A DNA stretch of 64,000 nucleotides from Elusimicrobiota bacterium. GTDB lineage: Bacteria; Elusimicrobiota; Elusimicrobia; Elusimicrobiales; UBA9959. The notes beneath the pieces are model-generated. The model saw only the letters and a program-made list of their open reading frames with translations. It did not search any database and was not told the origin of the DNA. The stretch covers positions 7,711 to 71,710 of the forward strand of contig JAUSCK010000277.1 of assembly GCA_030651035.1 (NCBI GenBank), given 5' to 3'. Every line of letters starts with the position of its first letter. Positions within the stretch are counted from its first letter, which is position 1. This document shows positions 775-58,060 of this stretch, piece by piece. A program made the position numbers and the translations under genes.

Positions 775-933
775 CCGCAAAGAAGCGCAAGAGGCGCAAC
801 TATTTAGAGCACTGCACATCACCGCAGAGACGCAGAGGTCGCAGAGCACGGAAAGAGATGTTCTTATTCTTCTCTGCGACCTCTGCGCCTCTGCGGTGAA
901 ATCTGATTCTGCGCTTTTTGCACATTTTTGCGG
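775..933. repeat. Nested inverted word arrays filling the ABC intergenic spacer
   Basis: CCGCAAAGAAGCGCAAGAGGCGCAA (775-799) is roughly complementary to TGCGCTTTTTGCACATTTTTGCGG (910-933). Together they enclose the CGCAGAG-type hairpin element at 819-900. Confidence 0.7.
819..900 (+). repeat. TIR hairpin element, short copy (MITE/REP-like), copy 1
   Basis: Left arm TCACCGCAGAGACGCAGAGGTCGCAGAG and right arm CTCTGCGACCTCTGCGCCTCTGCGGTGAA are near-perfect reverse complements. The same arms recur at 52141, 55004 and 55732. Confidence 0.85.
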
Positions 934-3367: not shown

Positions 3368-3430
3368 GACTCCCCACTCCCGATTCTCGATTCCCGACTC
3401 CCGACTATCGACTTTTGATTTTCGATTTCC
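3368..3430. repeat. Nine tandem heptamers GAYTYYC (GRRRRTC on the minus strand)
   Basis: The run reads gactccc cactccc gattctc gattccc gactccc gactatc gactttt gattttc gatttcc. It fills the spacer between the 1070-aa gene stop (3430) and the PorV-like gene start (3356). Confidence 0.9.
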
Positions 3431-35442: not shown

Positions 35443-36536
35443 GGGGTAATCTCGCGACTCTTGGATACATAAATCTGGCTCATTATTTTCGCCATTTCAC
35501 AGGCCGGTTTATTGGGAGCGAACAGGTTTCCTTCCTCAATAAGGCTCAAGCCGGGACAGCGGCTGCAGAAGTCTATATCCGCGCAGGAGGCGCAGCCTTT
35601 AAGGTCCCGCATTCCTGCGCTGCGCCATTTTTTAAGCCAGGCCGAGTTTTTCCAGATGTCGGAGAAGCTTTGCCTGGTCAGATCCCCCAGTTTTACCGGA
35701 ACCTGCAGGCAGGAATAAAGCCCGCCCTCCGGGCCGACAGCGCAGACATTGCGGCCGGCGCCGCATAGAAAATCCAGGGTCGGGGAGTCGGGAGTCGAGA
35801 GTCGGGGGTCGAGCGCAGCGAGACTGTGCTTGTCGGGAATCGGGGAGCGGGGATTAAGAGGCGCGGAGAGAAGTTTTACTGCTTTTGACAGCTGCGGGCC
35901 GGAGAGGCGCAGGGGGAGGGCGGAGGCGTTGCCGTCGTTGGTTGAGGTTATAGTCGGGTCGAAAGAGATATCAAAGCCTTCTGTTTCAGCGAGTTTCCTG
36001 AGCCAGCCGGCCTGGCCCAGGTTTTTTTTCATCAGCGGGGTTTTAAATTTCACTTTTATGCCGGCCGCCTTAAGCAGGCGGGCCGCCGCAAGGGTGTGTT
36101 TAGAAGAATTTTTCACGCCGGTAACGGAATCATGCAGGGCGGGTTTACCATAAAAACTGAGCTCAAAGGCGGAAACCCCGGCTTTCTTAAATTCAGCGGC
36201 AAGTCCGGGTGTCAGCCCCAGGCCAGTGGAAAAAACACGGACGTCGAAGTTGAGCTTTTTTGCGTGGCGGCAGAGCTCGGCCAGGTCGGGACGCAGCAGG
36301 GGTTCCCCCCCGGTATAAACCAGGTAAAGCGCGCCGGCTCCCGCCAGCTGCGCGAGGATATTCTTCCATTGGGCGGTTGTCAGTTCAAGGCCGGCGGGGG
36401 CGCGGCCGCGGGTCTCCGGCAGGTAACAATGCAGGCAGGCGAGGGGGCAGCGGCGCGTGAGCTCAATAGTGACCGCCGCCGGGATATTCCGCTCAAGCGT
36501 AAGCGTGTTCAGTTTAGCCGCAATTGCGAATTTCAT
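35439..36536 (-). CDS. Radical SAM / SPASM-domain peptide maturase
   Basis: 365 aa with the CPLACLHC (CxxxCxxC) cluster, GGEPLL, and a C-terminal Cys-rich SPASM region (FLCGAGRNVCAV...CLQ...GCASCADIDFCSRCPG). Confidence 0.85.
   Translation of the reverse strand: MKFAIAAKLNTLTLERNIPAAVTIELTRRCPLACLHCYLPETRGRAPAGLELTTAQWKNILAQLAGAGALYLVYTGGEPLLRPDLAELCRHAKKLNFDVRVFSTGLGLTPGLAAEFKKAGVSAFELSFYGKPALHDSVTGVKNSSKHTLAAARLLKAAGIKVKFKTPLMKKNLGQAGWLRKLAETEGFDISFDPTITSTNDGNASALPLRLSGPQLSKAVKLLSAPLNPRSPIPDKHSLAALDPRLSTPDSPTLDFLCGAGRNVCAVGPEGGLYSCLQVPVKLGDLTRQSFSDIWKNSAWLKKWRSAGMRDLKGCASCADIDFCSRCPGLSLIEEGNLFAPNKPACEMAKIMSQIYVSKSREITP
35777..35870 (+). repeat. GRRRGTC word array embedded in frame in the rSAM gene
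   Basis: The plus strand reads GGGTC GGGGAGTC GGGAGTC GAGAGTC GGGGGTC ... GTC GGGAATC GGGGAGC GGGGATT AAGAGG. This is homologous to the minus-strand reading of 3368-3430 (GTC GGGAATC GAGAATC GGGAGTG GGGAGTC AAGAGG). It encodes LNPRSPIPDKHSLAALDPRLSTPDSPTLD between the rSAM core and SPASM. Confidence 0.75.
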
Positions 36537-36563: not shown

Positions 36564-36905
36564 TTACACGAACAACAGAGCAAGCGAGCGGCGGATCTTT
36601 GAGTAGATATAGCCGCAAAGGCCGCCGGCAAGGGGGTTTCGGCTCAGGACTTTGCCGCGGATATTTTCCCATGGCACCAGGTGGGGTTCCAGGCGGCCGG
36701 CGTCATCCGCCAGCCAGGCGCCTTCCGGCCCGGTTTTTACCACCCGGTGAAGCAATATGCGGCCCTCAAGATCGTATACAGCGCAATCGCCTGGGGAAAG
36801 GATAAGGGATGAGGGATGAGGGATGAGGGGATGCACGAGGGCAATCTCGCCGGGTTTAAATACCGGGAGCATGCTTGACCCCTCAAGACGGAAAGCGGCG
36901 GGCAT
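36564..36905 (-). CDS. S26B-type (SipW/Sec11-like) signal-peptidase-fold protein, candidate leader peptidase
   Basis: 113 aa. EGSSMLPVFKPGE (GxSMxP Ser box) and ILLHRVVK (His in place of Lys, as in archaeal/ER-type S26B). The ATG lies 2 nt after the precursor stop. Confidence 0.6.
   Translation of the reverse strand: MPAAFRLEGSSMLPVFKPGEIALVHPLIPHPSSLILSPGDCAVYDLEGRILLHRVVKTGPEGAWLADDAGRLEPHLVPWENIRGKVLSRNPLAGGLCGYIYSKIRRSLALLFV
36797..36831 (+). repeat. Five tandem heptamers RARGGAT inside the peptidase gene
   Basis: aaaggat aagggat gagggat gagggat gagggga, encoding the loop PLIPHPSSLILSP in frame. Confidence 0.85.
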
Positions 36906-37355: not shown

Positions 37356-37763
37356 TCATTGAAACAGCGTTTTTACCCAATCAAGGTAACGGCCAACATC
37401 TTTTGTGATGTCCGACGCTTCCCGTTCGGTAAATTCCCTGGAATCATATTCCACTATGCTCTTTTGCCCAAGGATACGGGTAAGCCGGGCGGACTGTACG
37501 CTGACCTTCTCGTGCTTTATGTGAATACACAGCAGCTCTACCGCCTCATAGTGGCTTTCTCCGGCTGAGCGCACCTTGGCTTTAAATCCCAGCGCCGCGT
37601 CGGTAGCGGATATAGCGCAGTGGACTCCCGCCAGGCCCGCCGAATTCCACCGTCTTTGTCTGCAGGACTCCAGCATGGTCTGGTAGAATTCCTCAGCCTT
37701 CTTCAGATAGGATTTTGCCTCGGCTTCGCTCACATGCCTGGTGCGGTGTTTTTTAGGGCTCAT
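37356..37763 (-). CDS. HEPN-domain protein (toxin of an MNT/HEPN pair)
   Basis: Helical protein of about 135 aa with an R-x5-H motif (RSAGESH). It overlaps the upstream MNT gene by 11 nt. The track start at 37781 is TTG; ATG 37763 is preferred. Confidence 0.7.
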   Translation of the reverse strand: MSPKKHRTRHVSEAEAKSYLKKAEEFYQTMLESCRQRRWNSAGLAGVHCAISATDAALGFKAKVRSAGESHYEAVELLCIHIKHEKVSVQSARLTRILGQKSIVEYDSREFTEREASDITKDVGRYLDWVKTLFQ

Positions 37764-38376
37764 GGGCCAGCAGCTCCTCAAAATATTTACCGGAAATTAC
37801 GCGGCCTTCCTTGATCACATTTTGGATCAATTTATCTTTTTTATCGAACCTGGCGACAAAGTCCCGGCGACGAATAACATGCGGGGAAAGCATCATTCCG
37901 AATTTGGCCAGAAATTCCCCGCTTTTATCCTGTATGCCAGCGGTGATCTTCCGGACATCGAGGGAATCCTCAAGCACGAGCATAATATCCAGGTCGCTGC
38001 CCTGTCTGCCTTCCCCGCGCGCCACACTGCCGAAGACGATCAGGGACACGACGCCTTTATTCGGCAGCGCCTTGCGCAGCTCCTCTATCATCGCGCCAAA
38101 CAGCCCCCCCTCGCTTTCGAAAAGGGGAGACAGCATATTTTTAACCACATAACGCGTTCTGTTGAGCGAGAATAAATATGAAGCCCCCGCGGTCTTCCTG
38201 TGGACGATGCCCGCGGCATAGAGTTCCTGCAGGGCCTGCTGCGCGGCCCTGGGGCTCAAGTCCGCCTTCCTGGCAATTTCCCTGCCCGTGAATTCCGTCC
38301 CGCGGTAAAGGATGCGGAGAATAGTCACCTTTGACTTCTGCCCCAGAAAATCCTCCAGCAGATGCTTTGTGTCCAT
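37753..38376 (-). CDS. Winged-helix plus minimal nucleotidyltransferase (MNT) protein
   Basis: N-terminal wHTH (KVTILRILYRGTEFTGREIARKADLSPRAAQQALQEL) followed by the NTase motif LIVFGSVARGEGRQGSDLDIMLVL (GS...DxD). Confidence 0.8.
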   Translation of the reverse strand: MDTKHLLEDFLGQKSKVTILRILYRGTEFTGREIARKADLSPRAAQQALQELYAAGIVHRKTAGASYLFSLNRTRYVVKNMLSPLFESEGGLFGAMIEELRKALPNKGVVSLIVFGSVARGEGRQGSDLDIMLVLEDSLDVRKITAGIQDKSGEFLAKFGMMLSPHVIRRRDFVARFDKKDKLIQNVIKEGRVISGKYFEELLAHEP

Positions 38377-38438: not shown

Positions 38439-38451
38439 CCCCGCATCCTCT

Positions 38452-38476
38452 TTGCGCATCTTGCGCTTCTTTGCGG
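38452..38476 (-). repeat. Post-stop 25-mer, second copy
   Basis: The minus strand reads CCGCAAAGAAGCGCAAGATGCGCAA, a 24/25 match to 775-799. It starts 9 nt after the HprK-like stop; the first copy starts 3 nt after the ABC ATPase stop. Confidence 0.85.
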
Positions 38477-38485
38477 CTAATCCCA

Positions 38486-45664: not shown

Positions 45665-45700
45665 TATTTTTTCAACCTTCCCACTCCCCGCCGTTTCCAC

Positions 45701-45728
45701 CCTTCATCCCTCAGCCTTCATCCTTTCC
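45701..45728 (-). repeat. RARGGAT word array in the pseudopilin/PilX-like spacer
   Basis: The minus strand reads GGAAAGGATGAAGGCTGAGGGATGAAGG. It is complementary to the array at 45578-45612 and 23/27 identical to the element at 54438-54460. Confidence 0.85.
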
Positions 45729-48818: not shown

Positions 48819-48928
48819 TACCTGATCCCTCACCCGGAACAAAACCATTATAGATACTCTATTACAAAAAAATCAAGGGGGAAACAAAAAAAAATCAAAT
48901 TTCGGCCAAATCCCATAGAGCAAATGGT

Positions 48929-49040
48929 ACGAATAGTTGCGAATAACACGAATGGCTGCCAATTTTTGACAAGACAAATAAATTTCGTTGTATTCGCTAT
49001 TAATTCGCGCAATTCGCTTTGATTATTCGTCCTATTCGCT
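48929..49040. repeat. CGAATA / TATTCG inverted word arrays
   Basis: acgaatagttgcgaataacacgaatgg, then a 28-nt spacer, then tttcgttgtattcgctattaattcgcgcaattcgctttgattattcgtcctattcgc. Confidence 0.8.
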
Positions 49041-49770: not shown

Positions 49771-49793
49771 TGTTTTTCCTCCTGACTGCAAAT

Positions 49794-49887
49794 CACACGA
49801 ATGACTGCGAATACCTCGAATAATTACCAAAAATGGTCGCTAATGAGTTTATGATCCGTTGTTGTTATTCGTCTCATTCGCTATTCC
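49794..49887. repeat. CGAATA / TATTCG inverted word arrays
   Basis: cacacgaatgactgcgaatacctcgaataatt ... gttattcgtctcattcgctattcc, spanning the GT2 stop to the start of the next gene. Confidence 0.8.
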
Positions 49888-51188
49888 ACCAGATCTGCTA
49901 TGGCCACGCGGCTGGTATGCTCGGTGCGGCCCCAGAAATCGGTGCCGCGCAGCACGCCCGCCACAAAAACCGGCAGCCGCAGTATCCCCAGCAGCGGCTG
50001 CAGGAAATAGGCGGCAGCCAGGCCGGGGCTGGCGCGCTCGATAACCAGCGCTGCCGCCGGGTAAAGCAGCAGCGGCACCAGGGAAAGAGCCTTCATGGTG
50101 TGTTCCATGCCCGGCAGGGCCCCGTAAAGCCAGACCACAAGGTTGAAAGAGTCCCGGCTGAACCAGACCAGCGCGGCGCCCAGCGAAACTATAGCGAAGC
50201 GGTAGGTCTGGGCGGAATAAAGGGCGCCCTCGAAAGCCCTGAGATCCCCCCGGCGCAGCGCGCGGGCGGCGAGGCCGGGCAGGTGGCGGCGGGCCGTGTC
50301 GAGCGAGCCGCGCGTCCAGCGTATGGTGCGGCACAGGTACTGCCGCAGGGTCTCCGGCTCCTCGTCGTAAACCACGGCGTCCTGGGCCCAATGAATGCGC
50401 ACGCCGTGGCGTATCAGGCGCATCTGCATCTCCAGGTCCTCGGTCAGGCAGGTTTCATCCCAGTGGAATTTGCCGGCGATCGCGGCGGTAAAACACATCC
50501 CCTTGCCGTGAAGCGTGGCGGAAAGGCCCAGCGCGGCCTTGGGCAGCTGGAAAAACCTGTTGGAAACGATATGCCCGGCCGCCAGTATTTTAGCCAGCAG
50601 GCACCCGGTATTTTTGGCCAGCTGCCTGCCCTGCAGGGCCTCGGCCCCGGCTGCAAGGTGCGCGTTCATGGCTTCAAGGAAACCGGGGTGTGCCAGCGAG
50701 TCGGCGTCAAAATAGCAAAGCGCGTCGAAGATCCCGGCGGCCAGTATTTTTTCAGTGGCCCATTTAAGAGCGCGGCCTTTGCCGGCCTTTAAGCCCGGCC
50801 CCGCATGCTCCAGCACCCTGGCGCCGGCGGCCGCGGCCGCCCGCGCTGTGCCGTCCGTGCAGTGGTCGGCCGCCACAAAGATCTCAAAAAGCTCCCGGGG
50901 GTATTTCAGGCCGGCCAGGCTTTCCACCGCCAGGCCGACTACGCCCTCCTCGTTGTGCGCCGGCAGCAGCAGCGCGAAGCGGCGCCGCAGCTGGGCGCGC
51001 GCGGGTTTCTTCAGCTGCCAGAAGCCGCGGAAGCTCAATAAAAGGTATAAAAGGCCGGTGACAAAAAGGAACACCTGCGCCAGGTTGGAAAACGTTATTA
51101 AGATAAATTTCCACATAGTAACACGGCCGGCGCAAAAAAGCCGGCTATGGATATCGATAATAATACAAAATGGACGGGGTGAAGGCAA
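49881..51188 (-). CDS. Membrane-embedded family 2 glycosyltransferase
   Basis: FALLLPAHNEEGVV...FVAADHCTDGT...YFDADSL (DxD-type), QxxRW-like RTIRWTRGS, with TM segments at both ends. The start is uncertain (51188 or ATG 51116). Confidence 0.8.
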   Translation of the reverse strand: MPSPRPFCIIIDIHSRLFCAGRVTMWKFILITFSNLAQVFLFVTGLLYLLLSFRGFWQLKKPARAQLRRRFALLLPAHNEEGVVGLAVESLAGLKYPRELFEIFVAADHCTDGTARAAAAAGARVLEHAGPGLKAGKGRALKWATEKILAAGIFDALCYFDADSLAHPGFLEAMNAHLAAGAEALQGRQLAKNTGCLLAKILAAGHIVSNRFFQLPKAALGLSATLHGKGMCFTAAIAGKFHWDETCLTEDLEMQMRLIRHGVRIHWAQDAVVYDEEPETLRQYLCRTIRWTRGSLDTARRHLPGLAARALRRGDLRAFEGALYSAQTYRFAIVSLGAALVWFSRDSFNLVVWLYGALPGMEHTMKALSLVPLLLYPAAALVIERASPGLAAAYFLQPLLGILRLPVFVAGVLRGTDFWGRTEHTSRVAIADLVE

Positions 51189-51231: not shown

Positions 51232-52119
51232 ATGGAAGAAGAACAGAAGAAGTCCGGCTGGAAGATCTGGGTCTACCTCACCCCGGTATATATAGTGCTG
51301 GCCATGCTGCTTGTCAGGTGGACCGCGAAGATAAACTCCAGCGACATCAACCTTACAAAGGAAGGCTATAACGCCTTCAACGCCCCCGACGGTGAAATAA
51401 AAAAACGCCGGGACGACGGCTACGACCCGAATCTCAGCGACAGCGGCTACAACGTGCGCTACCGCTCCGGCGGGGCCGAAGCCGGCAAGCTGCGGGGGGA
51501 CGGGCCAACCCGGCAGGCCTTAGAGCAGGCTGAAAAAGCCGCCGCCGCGCGCCGGGCGCAGGACCAAAAAACCGAGGAAGCCGGCCAGGCGCGCGGGGGC
51601 AAAACCGCCAACCAGAACGCGCTGGAATCCAACGACACCAAGGCCAAGGAGCAGATGACCGCGGGATACAAGAAAGGCTACCTGAGCTACGCCGTGGAAA
51701 AGGTCATGAATAATCCCAAGGCCGTGGGCGCGCTTATGAACAACAAGTATGTGGTCGAAGGCTTTATGTCCAGGGGCACGGTAAAATCCGCCACGGGCAG
51801 CGCGCAGGGCCTGGCCAACTATCTCAAAAGCGACGGGCCGTCCAACTTCATGAACAACCCCGTGGTTAAAGCCGCCCTGAATAACCCCGCGCTGGTGAGC
51901 GCCGTGGCCGGGAGCGGCATGGTAAGCGCCATGCTGAACACGCCGGCGGCGAAGGCGCTTATGAACGACCCCGCCGCCCTGAGCGATTTGATCAACAACA
52001 ACCCGCAGCTGATGGCCCTGGCAATGCAGAACCCGCAAACCCTTAGCACGCTGATGGCCAATCCCGAGGTCTCCGGCCTGGTGGGCAAGTTCGACACCAG
52101 CAAAATCAAAAAATATTAA
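51232..52119 (+). CDS. Membrane-anchored protein with C-terminal NPxx-hydrophobic repeats (STI1/ubiquilin-like pattern)
   Basis: N-terminal TM (WKIWVYLTPVYIVLAMLLV), then NNPVVKAALNNPALVSAV...LNTPAAKALMNDPAALSDLINNNPQLMALAMQNPQTLSTLMANPEVSGLV. Confidence 0.5.
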   Translation: MEEEQKKSGWKIWVYLTPVYIVLAMLLVRWTAKINSSDINLTKEGYNAFNAPDGEIKKRRDDGYDPNLSDSGYNVRYRSGGAEAGKLRGDGPTRQALEQAEKAAAARRAQDQKTEEAGQARGGKTANQNALESNDTKAKEQMTAGYKKGYLSYAVEKVMNNPKAVGALMNNKYVVEGFMSRGTVKSATGSAQGLANYLKSDGPSNFMNNPVVKAALNNPALVSAVAGSGMVSAMLNTPAAKALMNDPAALSDLINNNPQLMALAMQNPQTLSTLMANPEVSGLVGKFDTSKIKKY

Positions 52120-52140
52120 AAGAAAAACTTCTTCCGATAT

Positions 52141-52270
52141 TCACCGCAGAGGCGCAGAGGTCGCAGAGTTCGGAGGGGAAAATATTAGTTTATGTTTCTT
52201 CTCACTGCGGTGTCGCTTCGCTCCACTCTGTGTACTCTGCTCTCTGCGACCTCTGCGCCTCTGCGGTGAA
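52141..52270 (+). repeat. TIR hairpin element, copy 2 (130 bp)
   Basis: TCACCGCAGAGGCGCAGAGGTCGCAGAG ... CTCTGCGACCTCTGCGCCTCTGCGGTGAA. The internal sequence is about 90% identical by eye to copy 4. Confidence 0.9.
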
Positions 52271-52312
52271 ATTAATCATTTCCCGCTGCCCCCCCCTCTG
52301 AATAATTAGTTA

Positions 52313-52342
52313 TTGACAGTCGTCAACTAAAAGTCCTATATT
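52313..52342 (+). promoter_or_regulatory. Sigma70-like promoter for the S8 protease gene
   Basis: TTGACA-N18-TATATT. GGAGGA lies at 52375-52380, 3 nt before ATG 52384. Confidence 0.6.
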
Positions 52343-52383
52343 GAGCATAGGTACTTTGGCCCCTGTTTATTCTTGGAGGAAAA

Positions 52384-53592
52384 ATGAAAAAAATATCAAC
52401 CTTAATAGCCGGTGTAATACTTGCCGCGGCCGTCAGCGCGCAGGCTTCGCAGAAGATAGTGAGCTTCGAGCACGCCTATAAAGGCGCCATAGACAAAAGC
52501 GTCGAGAGCCTAGGAGGGACGGTCACCCGTAAATTCACCCTGATAGACTCCCTTGTCGCGGTTTTCCCCGACAACATTAAAGACTCCAGCATCTACGCCC
52601 TGAAGGGCGTGACCGACGTGGCGGAAGACAGTTATACACGCTGGATCGAAGCCGCCCCGGCCTCAATGACTTCAGTGCCCCTCCCTTCCGTGGAAAGCGC
52701 CCTGGACATGATACGCACCGGCGAGGGCTGGGAAGCCCCCGTGTTCACAGCGATCCGGCCCGCGGCCGACCCCGCCGAGAAAGAGATCCCCTGGGGCGTG
52801 AAGCGCGTCAACGCGGCCGGCGCCTGGAGCACGAACTCCGGCAAGGGCGTTAAAGTGGCCGTCGTGGACACCGGCGTAGATTTCAACCACCCCGACCTTG
52901 CTTCCAACTATAAAGGCGGCTATAACGCCATCATCTCCACCGCCCCTCCGCTGGACGACCACGGGCACGGCTCGCACGTCTCCGGGACCATAGCGGCCAT
53001 CAGGGACCTCAAGGGCGTGGTCGGCGTTGCGCCGTCCGTGGACCTCTACGGAGTTAAAGTCCTGGACAAGAACGGCTCCGGCCAGTACTCCTGGGTGGTG
53101 GCCGGCATAGAGTGGGCCGTCATGAACGGGATGAATGTAATAAATATGAGCCTCGGCGGCAGCAGCGGCACCGAAGCCCTCAGGCAGATCATGATAAAGT
53201 CCAAAGAAATGGGCGTGGCCGTAGTCTGTGCCGCCGGCAACAGCGGCGGTTCCGTCGGTTACCCCGCCAAGTACCCGGAAGCTATCGCCGTTTCCGCCTC
53301 CGACTCCGCGGACAAGATCGCCTCTTTCTCCTCGCGCGGCCCTGAAATAGCCGTGATAGCTCCCGGCGTTAACGTGTACTCCGTGCGCAAGGGCGGCGGC
53401 TACACCACCATGTCCGGGACCTCCATGGCCTGCCCCCACGTGGCCGGCCTGGCGGCGCTCGCGGTAGGCGCGGGAGCCCAGGGTTCCGACGCGGTAAGGG
53501 CGGCCCTTAAAGCCGCGGCCACCCCGCTTCCCGGCCTTACGCCGGTACAGCAGGGCGCGGGCCTCGTGGACGCGGCCAAGTTCGCGCATTAA
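52384..53592 (+). CDS. Secreted subtilisin-family (S8) serine protease with propeptide
   Basis: Signal peptide, then the catalytic triad motifs VAVVDTGVD, HGHGSHVSGTIAA and GTSMACPHVAGLAAL, with oxyanion Asn in NMSLGG. Confidence 0.9.
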   Translation: MKKISTLIAGVILAAAVSAQASQKIVSFEHAYKGAIDKSVESLGGTVTRKFTLIDSLVAVFPDNIKDSSIYALKGVTDVAEDSYTRWIEAAPASMTSVPLPSVESALDMIRTGEGWEAPVFTAIRPAADPAEKEIPWGVKRVNAAGAWSTNSGKGVKVAVVDTGVDFNHPDLASNYKGGYNAIISTAPPLDDHGHGSHVSGTIAAIRDLKGVVGVAPSVDLYGVKVLDKNGSGQYSWVVAGIEWAVMNGMNVINMSLGGSSGTEALRQIMIKSKEMGVAVVCAAGNSGGSVGYPAKYPEAIAVSASDSADKIASFSSRGPEIAVIAPGVNVYSVRKGGGYTTMSGTSMACPHVAGLAALAVGAGAQGSDAVRAALKAAATPLPGLTPVQQGAGLVDAAKFAH

Positions 53593-53710
53593 CGAATAGC
53601 GCGAATAAAAAGCGAATAAAACGAATAAAAAACCCCGCGGAAGATTTCCGCGGGGTTTTTTTTAGTGCATTCGTGTCATTCGTCCTAAACTTATTCGCGC
53701 CATTCGCTAT
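53592..53710. repeat. CGAATA / TATTCG inverted word arrays flanking a terminator
   Basis: acgaatagcgcgaataaaaagcgaataaaacgaataaaaaa [hairpin] gcattcgtgtcattcgtcctaaacttattcgcgccattcgctat. Confidence 0.8.
53633..53663. terminator. Bidirectional rho-independent terminator
   Basis: CCCCGCGG-aagattt-CCGCGGGG is followed by T8 and preceded by an A-run, between convergent genes. Confidence 0.8.
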
Positions 53711-54408
53711 CACCAGCCAGTCCCCTCCCCCGTCATCTGCTCCAGGCGCTGCCCGACTATCTTGTCCTTGTTGAGCTTGCGGCTTTCAAGATTTTTCCTG
53801 AGCTTGGCCATTTCCTTCTCCATGAACTTCACGCGCAGTTCCTGGCCCTTGGTCTTCAGGTCGAAAAGCTCGGCAAGTATGCCCCTGAGGCTGTCCTTTA
53901 TCGCCTTCTTGTCGGCGTCGGGAGCCTTGTCGTATTTGAGCGAAAGCTCCTTGCTCTCGAACTCCAGCGACATCCCGCGGACGGCGTCTTTTTCCAGGCT
54001 CTCGTCCTGCTCCATCTTGGCCATCCCCAGCATTTTGCCGGACATCATCAGCACCATCTTATATTTGCGCGGGGCTGACTCGCGCAGGTTCCCCAGCTTT
54101 TTCGCGAAGGCGGGGTCGTGCTTGGTTACCACGGCCATTATCTCGTCTTCCATAAAGCCGGGCCCGCCCTTCTCTTTTCCCTCGCGTCCCTCGCGGAATT
54201 TTTTGATCTTGATCTGCATCTTCTCCTGGCCCATGCCGGGTCTCTCGGACCTGTCGGGTCTCTCGGGCCGCATTTCAGGCCTCCCCGGGCCGCCCTCCAT
54301 CATTTCAATTTCCTCTTCTTCGCCGGGTCCCTCCTGCGCCATCAGGTTGATAGCCGGGCCTGAAACTAGCGCTATCACCGCCGCCCACATAACAATTTTC
54401 TTATTCAT
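53710..54408 (-). CDS. Secreted coiled-coil protein of the ECF sigma operon
   Basis: MNKKIVMWAAVIALVSGPAINLMAQE signal peptide, a Glu/Pro/Arg-rich linker and a helical Lys/Glu-rich body. GGGAGA sits upstream of ATG 54408. Confidence 0.5.
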   Translation of the reverse strand: MNKKIVMWAAVIALVSGPAINLMAQEGPGEEEEIEMMEGGPGRPEMRPERPDRSERPGMGQEKMQIKIKKFREGREGKEKGGPGFMEDEIMAVVTKHDPAFAKKLGNLRESAPRKYKMVLMMSGKMLGMAKMEQDESLEKDAVRGMSLEFESKELSLKYDKAPDADKKAIKDSLRGILAELFDLKTKGQELRVKFMEKEMAKLRKNLESRKLNKDKIVGQRLEQMTGEGTGW

Positions 54409-54437
54409 ATATTCTCCCATCCTTTATATTAATTCCG

Positions 54438-54460
54438 CCCTTTATCCTTCAGCCTTCATG
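54438..54460 (-). repeat. RARGGAT word array overlapping the anti-sigma stop
   Basis: The minus strand reads ATGAAGGCTGAAGGATAAAGGGCGGAA, a 23/27 match to the element upstream of the PilX-like gene. Confidence 0.8.
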
Positions 54461-54930
54461 TTTTTCTCTGCCAGACTCTCGTCTTCCAGCGCGCTGCACT
54501 TATATTCCCAGTCGCTGGAGACAGAAGCCATATCGAACTTCGCCTGGTACATTGAATATTCCACCGAGTCCAAACCGGAGTCGAGCCCGCTGTTCCAGGC
54601 CAGGTCGGCCGGGACGCCGCTGCCGGAGAAGATGAAGCCCGCGACCAGAAGAGAGGCCAGGGCGCCGGACAGGAGGGTCTCTCCCCAGTTAAAAGAGAAA
54701 ACGCTCCCGCGCGAAACAGCCGCGCGGGCGGCCAGCATCACGGCTTCAACGGTGGCCGCCGACGGCCCGGGAGCGCGCCCGGACAGCCGCCCCTCCGCGG
54801 CCTTGAGCGCGGCCAGCTCACCGCGGCACGCGGCGCAGCCGGCCAGGTGTTCTTTCACCCCGGCCCGCATATCTTCCGCGGCTTCGCCGTAGAAGTAAAG
54901 TATCAGTTTTTCGCCGTACCCGCAGTTCAT
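54442..54930 (-). CDS. Anti-sigma factor (zf-HC2 type)
   Basis: MNCGYGEKLILYFYGEAAEDMRAGVKEHLAGCAACRGEL (H-x3-C-x2-C) and one TM segment, downstream of the ECF sigma gene. ATG 54930 is preferred over the track start at 54984. Confidence 0.7.
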   Translation of the reverse strand: MNCGYGEKLILYFYGEAAEDMRAGVKEHLAGCAACRGELAALKAAEGRLSGRAPGPSAATVEAVMLAARAAVSRGSVFSFNWGETLLSGALASLLVAGFIFSGSGVPADLAWNSGLDSGLDSVEYSMYQAKFDMASVSSDWEYKCSALEDESLAEKNMKAEG

Positions 54931-55003
54931 AAATGTCTCCTGTAAATACAACGCGCGCCCCCCCGCTTTTATTGCAACGCACAACCACCTAGTTTACTGC
55001 ATA

Positions 55004-55128
55004 TCACCGCAGAGGCGCAGAGTACGCGGAGGAAGAGCGCAGAGAAGAATATTGTTTTATATCCCTGCTCTTGACCGATGACTTGTGCTTCGCACCCCAC
55101 TCTGCGACCTCCGCGCCTCTGTGGTGAA
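55004..55128 (+). repeat. TIR hairpin element, copy 3 (diverged)
   Basis: TCACCGCAGAGGCGCAGAGTACGCGGAGG ... CTCTGCGACCTCCGCGCCTCTGTGGTGAA, lying between the sigma and anti-sigma genes. Confidence 0.8.
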
Positions 55129-55141
55129 ATAAGTATTGCAG

Positions 55142-55705
55142 TCATTCCTCCAGCTCTTTGCGGAGCAGGGCGGCGGCGCGGCTCATGCGGGCCAGCACCG
55201 TGCCTATGGGGACCGAAAGCATTTCGGCAATTTCCTTAAATGACAGCCCGGAATAATGGCGAAGGTAGAAGACCTCCCGCTGGTCCGCGGAAAGCAGGGC
55301 CAGCGCGGCGTCCAGTTTTTCAGCCAGCGCCTTGTTGACGGCGGCCTCCTCCGGGCCGGGCTCCGGCGAAGCCGCGCGATCCGCCGGCCCCGGCCTCTCC
55401 CCGTCCCCCTCGAGCGGAACCTCGCCCCTGGAGCTCTGACGCCTGAAATGGTCCATGGCGGCGTTGCGGGCCACGGTAAAAAGCCAGGCCTTCAGCTTTT
55501 CCCGCTCGCCGTAGGCGGACGGATTTTTCACCAGCTTAAGGAAGACCTCCTGGAACAGGTCGTCAGCCGCATCGGGCTGGCCCGTAAGGCTCAGCAGGTA
55601 GCCGTAGACGGCCGCCTTGTGCCGCTCCATCAGCAGCCCAAGCGCCTCGGCGTCCCCGCCCTTAAAGGCCGAGATAAGCTCGGAGTCTGAAAGTTCTTCT
55701 GACAT
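55142..55705 (-). CDS. ECF-type sigma-70 family RNA polymerase sigma factor
   Basis: Region 2 (DDLFQEVFLKLVKN...WLFTVARNAAMDHFRR) and region 4 HTH (SFKEIAEMLSVPIGTVLARMSRA). Confidence 0.9.
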   Translation of the reverse strand: MSEELSDSELISAFKGGDAEALGLLMERHKAAVYGYLLSLTGQPDAADDLFQEVFLKLVKNPSAYGEREKLKAWLFTVARNAAMDHFRRQSSRGEVPLEGDGERPGPADRAASPEPGPEEAAVNKALAEKLDAALALLSADQREVFYLRHYSGLSFKEIAEMLSVPIGTVLARMSRAAALLRKELEE

Positions 55706-55731
55706 TAATTATTACAACAAACAACCGATAT

Positions 55732-55861
55732 TCACCGCTGAGGCGCAGAGGTCGCGGAGTTCGGAGGAGAAAATATTAATTTATGTTTCTTCTCACTGCT
55801 GTGTCGCTTCGCTCCGCTCTGCGTACGCTGTTCTCTGCGACCTCTGCGCCTCAGCGGTGAA
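55732..55861 (+). repeat. TIR hairpin element, copy 4 (130 bp)
   Basis: TCACCGCTGAGGCGCAGAGGTCGCGGAG ... CTCTGCGACCTCTGCGCCTCAGCGGTGAA. It carries compensatory A/T changes in both arms (GCTGAGG / CCTCAGC). Confidence 0.9.
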
Positions 55862-55911
55862 CTCTTTCCTAAATCTGATCCTATATCTTCTTCTCTCTTC
55901 TCTTCTCATCT

Positions 55912-55933
55912 CTCTCTGTGTCTCTGTGGTGAA
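55912..55933 (+). repeat. Solo degenerate right arm of the TIR family
   Basis: CTCTCTGTGTCTCTGTGGTGAA. Confidence 0.6.
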
Positions 55934-55957: not shown

Positions 55958-58060
55958 ATGTTTCCAATAATTTCATACGATATAAAAGCCGTGCGAAGAT
56001 TTAATCTTATTCTATTATTCATCCTCATGCAATCCGGCGCCGGTTATTGCGCCGCTCCGGCCTATGAACTTTACCTGAAAGGAGAGCTGCTGCAGGCCTC
56101 CTCCGCCTACCTGGCCCTGGCCGACGCCGACCCGGAAAACCCGCGCCCCATGATGAACGCGGCCGCCTGCCTTAAGCAGGCCGGCCGCTACTACGACGCC
56201 GCCCGCATCATGGTAAAGGCGCTTGAGCGCGACCCGCAGAACCCGGATATTTATTCCGAGCTGGGCTGGCTGCGCTTCCACCAGGCTGATTATGAAGGCG
56301 CCCGCTCCGCCTTCGAGATAGCCCTGAAGATACAGATCCTGCACTCCCGCGCGGAGCTGGGCCTGGCCAGCGTCTACTCGAACCTGGACGAAAAGGAAAA
56401 GACCCTGGCCCACCTTGAGAAATACCGGCAGCTGCGCCCGGACTTCTCCGGGGTGGATTATATACTGGCCTGGAACTACATGAATTTCAAGATGCACAAG
56501 GAGGCGGAGGAAGCGCTGGTAGAGGCCCTGCGCAAGGACCCCTCCTTCACCGAGGCCCGCCTGCCGCTGGCCGGGATCTACGCCCGGCAGGGCAAGTTCA
56601 ACGAGGCCTGGAACCAGTACTACCGCGTGCTGGACTACGCCCCGGGCCACCCGGTGGCGTCCAAGATGATGAAGGTGCTTGAGGGGAAGCTGACCAAGCA
56701 GCCGGAGGAAATACGCCCGCCGTTCAGGATTACGAAGCCGCTGGTGATGGAGCCGCTGGACGCGCTGGCCAGCCTTTCGTCGTCCGTAAAGATCCGCGTG
56801 GGGATAGGCACCGGCAACACCGGCAAGCAGGGCAGGAACAACCTGCTCAGGATCAAATCCTTCGAGGGCCTGACCGTGACCGGCAAGGCCAGCGGCAAGG
56901 TTTACGCCACTATCCCCCCGGACGAGACCTGGACCGTAACGCATGAGGGCGACAAGGTGGCGCTGACCGCCCCCGACGGCACCGTCTTCGGGCGCTTCGC
57001 GGGCGCGGTGCTGGTGAAACCGGTGAAAACAGGCGGATCAGTGATCTTTGACGCCACTTCAAAAACAAAAAACCCATGGTTCAGCGGGGCTGACCGGCAA
57101 TACCGCGGCTATATTGAGCTTTTCCCTAACGGCGGGCGCGGCGTAGGCGTGGTGAACGTCATCGAGAACGAGCTTTACCTGCTGGGCGTGGTGCCCAGCG
57201 AGGTGGCGCCGCAGTGGCCCTATGAATCGCTGAAAGCGCAGGCCGTGATAGCCCGCACGCAGGTGCTGATACGCCGCGCGCGCGGCGGCCAGCACAAGAA
57301 GGACGGCTACCATCTCTGCGACGGGCAGCACTGCCAGGCCTACAAGGGCAAGTCCAACGAGGCCAACACCACCACCAACGCGGTGGTGGAGACCGAGGGC
57401 GAGATTCTGACCTACCACGGCCGCCCGGCCTACACCTTCTACCACTCGAACTGCGGCGGCTGGGTACAGGCCTCGAAAGAGGTCACCGGCTGGGGCGATT
57501 CCCCCTATCTGGTGACCAAGCCGGACATAGCCCCGGACAAGCGGCAGGAGCCGCTGGACCCGTGGGACTGGCACCTGTGGATAACAGGCAACCCGCAATC
57601 CAACTGCAATTACCCGGGCCGCGTACGCGCCTCCGAATACCGCTGGATGAAAATAATCCGCCAGAAAGACATGACCTTCCGCATCAACATGGATTACAAG
57701 ATAGGAGAGCTGGTGGAAATAATACCGCTCAGGCGCAGCCCCTCCGGCAACGTCAACACCCTGAAGCTGGTGGGCAGGAAAAAATCCGTTACGGTCACCA
57801 AGGAGCACCTGATACGCAATCTGCTGGGCTTCAGCTCGCTGAAAAGCACGCTGTTCGAGATAGAGATAAACCGCTTCAAGAACGGCAAGGTGCGCAATTA
57901 CTGGCTCTACGGCGGCGGCTGGGGCCACGCCATAGGCATGTGCCAGAGCGGCGCCGCCGGCCTGGCTGGCAAATACGACATGCCTTACAAGGGCATCTTG
58001 GATTTCTACTTCCCCGGCACCAGCCTGCGGACGATCAAATACGTGAAAAAGGTAAAATAG
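55958..58060 (+). CDS. TPR-repeat / SpoIID-LytB domain protein
   Basis: N-terminal signal-like segment, TPR units (aa 40-230), then the SpoIID pattern YRGYIELF...LYLLGVVPSEV...ESLKAQAVIARTQVL...LCDGQHCQAY...FYHSNCGGW. Confidence 0.85.
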   Translation: MFPIISYDIKAVRRFNLILLFILMQSGAGYCAAPAYELYLKGELLQASSAYLALADADPENPRPMMNAAACLKQAGRYYDAARIMVKALERDPQNPDIYSELGWLRFHQADYEGARSAFEIALKIQILHSRAELGLASVYSNLDEKEKTLAHLEKYRQLRPDFSGVDYILAWNYMNFKMHKEAEEALVEALRKDPSFTEARLPLAGIYARQGKFNEAWNQYYRVLDYAPGHPVASKMMKVLEGKLTKQPEEIRPPFRITKPLVMEPLDALASLSSSVKIRVGIGTGNTGKQGRNNLLRIKSFEGLTVTGKASGKVYATIPPDETWTVTHEGDKVALTAPDGTVFGRFAGAVLVKPVKTGGSVIFDATSKTKNPWFSGADRQYRGYIELFPNGGRGVGVVNVIENELYLLGVVPSEVAPQWPYESLKAQAVIARTQVLIRRARGGQHKKDGYHLCDGQHCQAYKGKSNEANTTTNAVVETEGEILTYHGRPAYTFYHSNCGGWVQASKEVTGWGDSPYLVTKPDIAPDKRQEPLDPWDWHLWITGNPQSNCNYPGRVRASEYRWMKIIRQKDMTFRINMDYKIGELVEIIPLRRSPSGNVNTLKLVGRKKSVTVTKEHLIRNLLGFSSLKSTLFEIEINRFKNGKVRNYWLYGGGWGHAIGMCQSGAAGLAGKYDMPYKGILDFYFPGTSLRTIKYVKKVK

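Follow-up and report, generated by a model that had tools for sequence, protein, structure and literature searches.

Why is a gene for an extracytoplasmic function (ECF) sigma factor bracketed by copies of one long hairpin, and what are these hairpins? The question is raised by a 64,000-nucleotide stretch of DNA from an Elusimicrobiota bacterium (assembly GCA_030651035.1, contig JAUSCK010000277.1, positions 7,711 to 71,710 of the forward strand; hereafter the window). A first-pass annotation, made from the sequence alone, had described in it a dispersed family of non-coding hairpin elements with four copies and a solo arm. We conclude, with a probability of roughly 65%, that the four elements are miniatures, devoid of an open reading frame (ORF), of a very widespread and apparently unnamed family of palindromic insertion cassettes. 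The hairpins are not dedicated regulators of the sigma factor gene that they flank. The main point, which the annotation overlooked, is that the arms belong to a pan-bacterial cassette carrying GxxExxY nuclease genes.

The hairpin family itself was borne out. Scanning the window for the 28-nt arm TCACCGCAGAGGCGCAGAGGTCGCAGAG with up to three mismatches gave matches at eight sites, 819-846(+), 872-899(-), 52141-52168(+), 52242-52269(-), 55004-55031(+), 55100-55127(-), 55732-55759(+) and 55833-55860(-), with 0 expected by chance from 100 shuffles of the window. A search with the core CTCTGYGGTGA added a solo arm (match at 55922-55932). A hidden Markov model built from 324 arms of the hairpin family and run with nhmmer returned exactly nine arms, with nothing further below E = 5 in the 64 kb. 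The nine arms make up four complete hairpins and one solo arm, listed here together with the hairpin that encloses copy 1.

818-900: copy 1, an 83-bp miniature hairpin with arms ATCACCGCAGAGACGCAGAGGTCGCAGAG ... CTCTGCGACCTCTGCGCCTCTGCGGTGAA and a 25-nt loop, located after an ORF ending at 771.
771-938: outer hairpin with copy 1 in its loop, arms TAACCGCAAAGAAGCGCAAGAGGCGCAA ... TTCTGCGCTTTTTGCACATTTTTGCGGCTAT made of GCAAAG/GCGCAA words, a different arm subtype, starting right after the stop codon at 769-771.
52140-52270: copy 2, a 131-bp hairpin with perfect 29-bp arms, 20 nt past the stop of a UBQLN-like gene (51232-52119).
55003-55128: copy 3, a degenerate 126-bp hairpin that follows the ECF sigma gene (55142-55705, minus strand) 13 nt after its stop.
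55731-55861: copy 4, a 131-bp hairpin carrying GCTGAGG paired to CCTCAGC, located 25 nt ahead of the start codon of sigma.
55887-55933, minus strand: solo arm TTCACCACAGAGACACAGAGAGAGATGAGAAGAG..., about 47 nt of CACAGAG words, the arm of an outer hairpin whose partner has been lost in this genome.

The fold check proposed by the annotation gave a very stable predicted structure, as RNA and as DNA, for every copy. Each arm pair forms a single long hairpin with an RNA free energy of -59 to -83 kcal/mol (z-scores of -7 to -12 on either strand; -5 to -11 for the DNA folds), and the compound fold of copy 1 within the outer hairpin reaches -95.8 kcal/mol (z -12.4). Copies 2 and 4, previously estimated at about 90% identity by eye, are 92.4% identical overall (121/131) and match at 66 of 73 loop positions. 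Copies 1 and 3 have only the arms in common with these two, and copy 3 is the most degenerate, with three and two arm mismatches. As had been stated, all four lie between ORFs and none contains a transposase-sized ORF; their loops, of 25-73 nt, hold no ORF at all. The annotation was also right that a solo arm follows copy 4, although it placed this arm at 55912-55933 only and took it for a degenerate member of the 28-nt type, whereas it is the longer CACAGAG-subtype arm listed above.

The four copies are not pieces of a single duplicated region, since copy 1 lies 51 kb from the others and has unrelated flanks. A separate Logan assembly of this organism contains contigs identical in sequence to the window, and these break off within the arms of copies 1, 2 and 4; one of them (L273) begins at window position 873, within the right arm of copy 1. 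Such assembly breaks inside the arms are the usual signature of a multi-copy repeat. The 35-nt loop pattern of copies 2 and 4 had 0 matches in JGI metagenome contigs, and a blastn search with copy 2 found no match in PLSDB plasmids or INPHARED phages.

The arms reach much further. The arm core pattern CTCTGCGNCTCTGCGGTGA, which has 18 specified bases and for which about 17 chance matches were estimated in 596 Gb on both strands, was found in at least 120 stretches of GTDB species representatives from more than 12 phyla. These include Chloroflexota, Acidobacteriota, Planctomycetota, Verrucomicrobiota, Bacteroidota, Pseudomonadota (Alpha-, Beta- and Gammaproteobacteria) and Thermodesulfobacteriota, with further matches in Armatimonadota, Gemmatimonadota, Chlamydiota, Bacillota (Heliomicrobium), Desantisbacteria, Poribacteria, Binatia and others. 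The core is also present in 59 IMG/VR viral-contig stretches. A complementary partner arm accompanied 82 of 124 arm-core matches, and most of the elements span 52-250 nt. The copies in the window are therefore not the only ones: sister genomes, and hundreds of others besides, have related copies.

All these arms have the same anatomy. They start with TTCACC, followed by two to four tandem words of 7-9 nt ending in RC(A/G/C)GAG, and the second arm, an exact mirror of the first, ends in GGTGAA. The word is GCAGAG in the window; elsewhere it is ACAGAG, ACGGAG, GCCGAG, GCGGAG or GCAAAG. For 149 arms taken from other genomes, the consensus is (T/C)TCACC-GCAGAG-R-CGCAGAG-RN-CGCAGAG; the window arms TTCACCGCAGAGGCGCAGAGGTCGCAGAG equal this consensus and also match arms that flank GxxExxY genes (e.g. 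at loci L213 and L216). The third word, CGCAGAG, is conserved although it lies outside the search pattern. The arm alignments have an A-rich 5' flank and a T-rich 3' flank. The hairpin design is the same from genome to genome, whereas the loops are unrelated. About 90% of the arm-selected elements are ORF-less miniatures, as are the window copies. We found no description in the literature of the arm sequences, or of inverted repeats around GxxExxY genes, in a search whose coverage left most subscription journals outside, and the hairpin family may have been described before.

The full-length form of the element has a gene for a GxxExxY protein of about 125 aa between the same arms (TIGR04256/PF13366, PD-(D/E)XK nuclease fold). 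At seven arm-selected loci from five phyla, such an ORF lies between the arms or adjoins them, with assignment scores of E = 1e-43 to TIGR04256 and E = 1e-41 to 1e-45 to PF13366 (PDDEXK_3); no GxxExxY ORF was found elsewhere in the 1.3 Mb of arm-selected loci. The layout is constant: the left arm is followed by a purine-rich linker that contains a ribosome-binding site, then by the ORF with its stop codon, 5-20 nt and the right arm. For a test in the reverse direction, metagenome-contig relatives were gathered by GxxExxY protein alignment alone, and the best 80 of 587 were kept, 75 of them with enough flank. A flanking inverted repeat of at least 17/20 was present at 58 of these 75 genes (77%), compared with 0/75 in the shuffled control, where the maximum was 16. 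Nearly all arms recovered in this way begin with TTCACC and continue with GCAGAG, ACAGAG, ACGGAG, GCCGAG, GCGGAG or GCAAAG words. The same layout is found in cultured bacteria: in Bacteroides finegoldii, radA is followed by GGTTCACCACAGAGGACGCAGAGGACACGGAG..ORF..CTCTGTGACCTCTGTGTCCTCTGTGGTGAA, and further carriers are Gemmatirosa, Bernardetia and a Sphingomonas in which the gene lies between fabD and fabG. Together, the seven loci and the reverse test indicate that the GCAGAG hairpins and the CACAGAG arm of the window, and probably also the GCAAAG hairpin, are ORF-less miniatures of the cassette family.

GxxExxY is a large family, with 21,207 cluster representatives at 50% identity (E <= 0.001). 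A survey of PD-(D/E)XK proteins lists its function as 'Unknown' and notes 'multiple transfers' between divisions (PMC3424549). No relative in the PDB was detected by sequence, and there is weak similarity to the Cas4 core only. Some of the relatives gathered here (within P0241-P0252) are 270-295 aa long with two matched stretches, i.e. tandem-duplicated or fused two-domain forms. In a Chloroflexota metagenome-assembled genome (MAG), a 111-aa GIY-YIG-like ORF lies within a 41-nt near-perfect inverted repeat (TTGTCATTCCGAGCGTAGCGAGGAATC...; L098, 1937-2365), which makes it the second type of small nuclease gene seen within a palindromic cassette.

Several observations weigh against the cassette explanation. 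The 80 relatives kept in the reverse test are those closest to the query, and the figure of 77% may hold for one subfamily only. Neither the 64-kb window nor the syntenic 12-kb loci of related genomes, the parts of these genomes that were searched, contain a GxxExxY gene. The AlphaFold model of the protein, made with 30 close homologues, has a pLDDT (predicted local distance difference test) of 47 and is too poor to use. A recognisable GxxExxY coding remnant was present in only 1 of 129 miniatures, so an origin as recent deletion derivatives is unsupported for most copies. Finally, similarity between GxxExxY proteins is uncorrelated with the word type of their arms (0.640 within and 0.637 between types, p = 0.17). 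Taken together, the uncoupling of arm type from protein and the scarcity of remnants mean that the nuclease may have invaded the hairpin, or ride in it as a passenger, instead of being the enzyme that mobilises it.

The last two observations lead to a reading in which the hairpin is primary. Here the palindromes would spread by themselves, through word slippage, fold-back or template-switch copying or some unknown host enzyme, GxxExxY genes would home into their loops, and the window copies would represent the 'empty' state, not degraded cassettes. The number of words does vary among elements, other word-hairpin types in the window have no TTCACC ends, and loops are favoured landing sites: copy 1 sits in a GCAAAG hairpin, the orthologue of copy 4 in the related locus L181 sits in a CACAGAG hairpin, and an intrinsic terminator of the window sits in a CGAATA hairpin. 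Yet exact arms of 19-28 nt are found across phyla and accompany one gene family in at least five of them, for which the simplest explanation is that the two travel together, and no mechanism is known by which a bare hairpin could spread autonomously. We regard this reading as unlikely, while giving it more weight than any of the other alternatives discussed below.

How the elements insert was approached through their ends. The annotation had suggested an AT/TA target-site duplication. None is present: among 104 complete hairpins, direct repeats of 2-5 nt at offsets of 0-4 occur at chance, the single excess being that of 4-mers at offset 2 (5/104). Complementarity stops at TT|CACC...GGTG|AA, with T at position -1 in 94 of 104 elements and at -2 in 75 of 104. 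According to crude ORF calls, the genomic contexts are tandem in 24 cases, convergent in 13 and divergent in 5, and in tandem contexts the upstream stop is nearer (median 30 nt) than the downstream start (70 nt; Wilcoxon p = 0.011). Spacers just past stop codons and the loops of existing hairpins are the favoured sites, the latter giving nested structures, and deletion between adjacent similar arms is a route of decay that leaves solo arms. The elements are often clustered or in tandem. Loop matches were found within genomes only (window copies 2/4, L004/L048, L063, L241, L244, L141/L178, L127/L131), and that of L004/L048 spans different contigs of one MAG. As loops are common only within a genome while arms are common across phyla, whole units multiply inside a genome.

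This mode of insertion bears on two classical kinds of small repeat. Short, non-coding units with terminal inverted repeats, present in several dispersed copies and spreading within a genome, resemble miniature inverted-repeat transposable elements, i.e. deletion derivatives of insertion sequences moved by a DDE transposase that recognises the 28-nt terminal repeats. Such an origin is very improbable here, given the lack of a target-site duplication of any offset or length in the 104 elements. Moreover, no transposase-bearing element with such ends was present among 268 loci, the long-loop forms carry GxxExxY or unrelated genes, and the sole recurrent cargo is the 125-aa nuclease-fold protein. 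The absence of a duplication, together with the clustered or tandem arrangement of extragenic palindromes, would fit REP/BIME-type repeats (repetitive extragenic palindromic sequences and their mosaics) mobilised by RAYT, a Y1 transposase of the IS200/IS605 kind. We consider this the least probable of the explanations weighed: the ends read TTCACC and no GTAG-type 5' tetranucleotide is conserved, the arms are 28-36 nt, perfect and separated by long loops where REP units are imperfect palindromes of 20-40 nt, and no Y1 transposase ORF lies between or beside the arms in the fetched loci.

A different possibility is that the hairpins serve the host as cis-regulatory RNA, as 3'-end stabilisers, terminators or attenuators under selection for pairing that tune the locus of ECF sigma factor, anti-sigma factor and protease. 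Their stems are very stable, they lie mostly just past stop codons, the copies surround a regulatory gene pair, and the arms covary strongly. The covariation was analysed over a 22-bp terminal stem in 55 elements, mostly protein-selected cassettes. In these, 90.4% of the stem cells are paired, both partners change in 12 of the 22 pairs, and such two-sided change is seen in 136 cells where shuffles gave 57.6 +/- 6.5 (0/500), values that are descriptive because they are inflated by choosing pairs for complementarity and by sequence relatedness; slid controls collapse. The two arms are kept complementary. The main switches run from A-U to G-C with almost no G-U intermediates (pair 7:42: AU 31, GC 23, GU 1; pair 15:34: AU 31, GC 22, GU 1), which counts against the regulatory reading. 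No strand bias was seen in the 46 elements with an inferable direction of transcription, as sense-strand wobble and A.C mismatches number 79 and 78, and fold stability does not differ between sense and antisense (p = 0.32). Such symmetric covariation is what a constraint at the DNA level, or copying that regenerates one arm from the other, would give, and it lends no specific support to selection on RNA. The first-pass annotation had taken the paired change GCTGAGG/CCTCAGC in copy 4 as an argument for selection on pairing. The pair is present, but the equal mismatch counts do not demonstrate selection at the RNA level, and the change is not a fresh one, as shown by the related loci.

These loci, of 12 kb each, were taken from four relatives with sigma factors 86-91% identical to that of the window (L181, L183, L184 and L186); the window's own sigma factor is 100% identical to a protein from an Elusimicrobiota MAG. 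The order of genes is the same in all, namely TPR/SpoIID, sigma, anti-sigma, a 230-aa protein, S8 protease and the UBQLN-like gene. What occupies the spacers differs.

Sigma/anti-sigma spacer: copy 3 in the window; a different hairpin of CACAAAG words in L181; empty in L183, L184 and L186.
Protease/UBQLN spacer: copy 2 in the window; empty in L181, L183 and L184; a CACGGAG/CACAGAG-word hairpin with the same left junction in L186.
Spacer upstream of sigma: copy 4 and one outer arm in the window; 34 nt without an element in L183; a different structured element in L184 and L186; in L181 a complete outer CACAGAG hairpin around the left arm TTCACCGCTGAGGCGCAGAGGTCGCAGAG and a diverged loop, with the inner right arm missing.

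Because the spacers differ amid an identical gene order, elements must have been gained and lost at orthologous sites. Upstream of sigma, the inner hairpin (copy 4) is complete in the window, where a single outer arm remains, and L181 shows the reverse, from which it follows that elements nest and decay by deletion between adjacent similar arms. The sigma factor of L181 is 86% identical to that of the window, and the left arm of its copy-4 orthologue already carries GCTGAGG, so this variant of copy 4 was inherited and is not new. The loop of that orthologue is far more diverged from copy 4 than is the loop of copy 2, which in view of the 92% identity marks copy 2 as a more recent duplicate, placed 3.5 kb away by insertion or by conversion. 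A composite transposon formed by copies 3 and 4 around the sigma gene was also considered, and rejected since the gene order is unchanged in relatives that have no copy 3.

Conserved signals lie close to the insertions. Copy 2 is located upstream of the S8 protease promoter, as had been noted in the first pass; the copy ends at 52270 and the conserved TTGACA-18-TATATT occupies 52313-52342. Copy 3 lies upstream of the motif CAATAAAAnCGGGGnGCGCGTTGTAnnTACAGGAG, which directly precedes the anti-sigma start (54930) in the window (54931-54975, minus strand) and is also found in L181, L183, L184 and L186. This motif may be an internal, possibly ECF-type, promoter with a ribosome-binding site, in which case sigma and anti-sigma need not be strictly co-transcribed. 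Its conservation downstream of copy 3 in all relatives means that the insertions have avoided conserved signals, as neutral insertions would. Two further features of the locus were recorded. The different structured element upstream of sigma, at the site of copy 4, is about 190 nt long (GGACCGGAACGCAAAAACAG ... GTTTTGCTAACCCGGTCC; L184 5737-6000, L186 723-936). The UBQLN-like protein (51232-52119) has a ubiquilin/STI1-like domain (PF23195, E = 3.6e-9) and its gene adjoins that of the S8 protease in all relatives.

The annotation had drawn attention to copies 3 and 4 as bracketing the sigma gene. Their positions are correct, but they have no special meaning, as close relatives keep the same genes and order with empty spacers or different hairpins. 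Copy 4 lies in a divergent promoter spacer, between sigma and the TPR/SpoIID gene (55958-58060), and the same arms are found beside unrelated genes in many phyla. Rfam returned no family for the window elements at gathering thresholds, and in E-value mode gave generic hairpin look-alikes far below threshold. A terminator scan called a true terminator at 53627-53661 and none of the hairpin elements, which have no U-tract and only mildly T-rich 3' flanks; an identity as intrinsic (Rho-independent) terminators was rejected on these grounds. A role as host cis-regulatory RNA is thus improbable, in spite of the stable and covarying stems.

Returning to the cassette family, we propose that its units are selfish DNA. 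They would spread through hairpin or cruciform ends and plausibly be mobilised in trans by a nuclease of the GxxExxY type; alternatively, the GxxExxY gene may use the hairpins as a landing site or home into them. Once transcribed, a perfect stem of 28-36 bp would be a candidate substrate for RNase III, by analogy with the intervening sequence (IVS) of the Coxiella 23S rRNA. Copy 3 would then cut the sigma message off from the RNA that follows it, while structured mRNA 3' ends of the upstream genes would be set by copies 1 and 2. Such effects on RNA processing would be by-products, with no dedicated regulatory design behind them.

The Coxiella IVS has a 28-bp terminal stem with tandem GACAGAT heptamers (x3-4) at its 5' end, in strain-variable number, and an ORF in its loop; RNase III cuts were mapped within the stem, and its origin is still unexplained (PMC4990558). 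Like the IVSs of Coxiella, Leptospira and Salmonella, the present elements have a long terminal stem, arms of tandem words and the possibility of a small ORF in the loop, and IVSs are likewise held to be selfish and horizontally acquired, with an obscure mechanism of mobility. They differ in that IVSs occupy helices 25 and 45 of 23S rRNA and encode the S23p four-helix bundle, whereas the window copies lie between protein-coding genes and the present arms consist of TTCACC and RCNGAG words with GxxExxY, a PD-(D/E)XK protein, as cargo when there is one. Rfam detected no rRNA in the window, and a motif search for S23p or a four-helix bundle found none in any fetched locus. Strict identity with 23S IVSs was therefore rejected, and the link stays an analogy.

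Other comparisons are partial as well. The Correia/NEMIS elements of Neisseria, RUP and ERIC are also non-coding, of 80-130 bp, with terminal inverted repeats and many intergenic copies that are co-transcribed with their neighbours, and Correia elements are substrates of RNase III. Unlike them, the present family has neither a target-site duplication nor a cognate transposase, its arms consist of tandem words, and it extends over more than 12 phyla as against one genus. REP/BIME-RAYT systems are similar in being extragenic palindromes without target duplication, often clustered and presumably handled as hairpins, whereas here no GTAG motif or RAYT was seen, the arms are longer and perfect, and the loops vary. 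The cyanobacterial STRR heptamer repeats and nested small dispersed repeats, reportedly the subject of work by Mazel et al. in 1990 and Elhai et al. in 2008, are said to have tandem 7-nt words, to be intergenic and able to form hairpins, and to be inserted within one another; their words and taxa reportedly differ, with no TTCACC terminus or nuclease cargo described. IS200/IS605 elements and palindrome-associated transposable elements (PATEs) resemble the present family in their way of working only, namely in duplication-free insertion that depends on DNA hairpins. Their hairpins are asymmetric and sub-terminal and they have a Y1 gene, often with TnpB, whereas the present element is one symmetric palindrome with PD-(D/E)XK cargo. 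By these analogies, the closest parallel to the present elements in their way of working would be an IVS or a co-transcribed hairpin of the Correia type, and in style of insertion the duplication-free, hairpin-dependent elements.

A bolder speculation, which we offer tentatively and consider possible but doubtful, is that hairpins with TTCACC words are in general the ends of unrecognised pan-bacterial mobile palindromic cassettes, which insert without duplication via hairpin or cruciform intermediates, are mobilised by the GxxExxY nuclease or serve for its homing, and have their design in common with 23S IVSs; the window miniatures would then be non-autonomous parasites. If the link with the nuclease holds, it would provide a genomic context, and hence a testable function, for GxxExxY, one of the larger families of bacterial proteins still uncharacterised. 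Near-identical 20-nt ends in a repeat family that extends across phyla would be unusual for bacterial miniature repeats, and Bacteroides and Gemmatirosa would be tractable carriers for studying how palindromic, duplication-free elements of the IVS type move. The arms also break short-read assemblies, and stems of the RNase III type inside operons matter for annotation and transcript boundaries in MAGs.

Other repeats were noted in the window. At 53590-53710, a hairpin with arms of tandem CGAATA-type words wraps the canonical bidirectional intrinsic terminator at 53627-53661. CGAATA-word arms are also present at 48925-48965 and 49790-49895, without a TTCACC terminus, and these hairpins may be a separate word-hairpin family. 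Solo tandem-heptamer arms are found at 3378-3430, 35786-35822, 36795-36835 and 45698-45728, with the complementary counterpart tens of kb away; the types are CCCGACT and its complement (CGGGAGT words were also recorded) and GGGATGA and its complement, and they resemble cyanobacterial STRR. A single ORF of 9388 aa (6691-34857, minus strand), made of dozens of diverged repeats of about 113 aa (339 nt), takes up 44% of the window. At 37356-38376 (minus strand), the gene for a HEPN-domain protein overlaps that of a putative nucleotidyltransferase, a toxin-antitoxin-like pair, and just upstream of it lies a solo GCAAAG/GCGCAA-word arm (38446-38480), almost the same in sequence as the left arm (772-799) of the hairpin that encloses copy 1.

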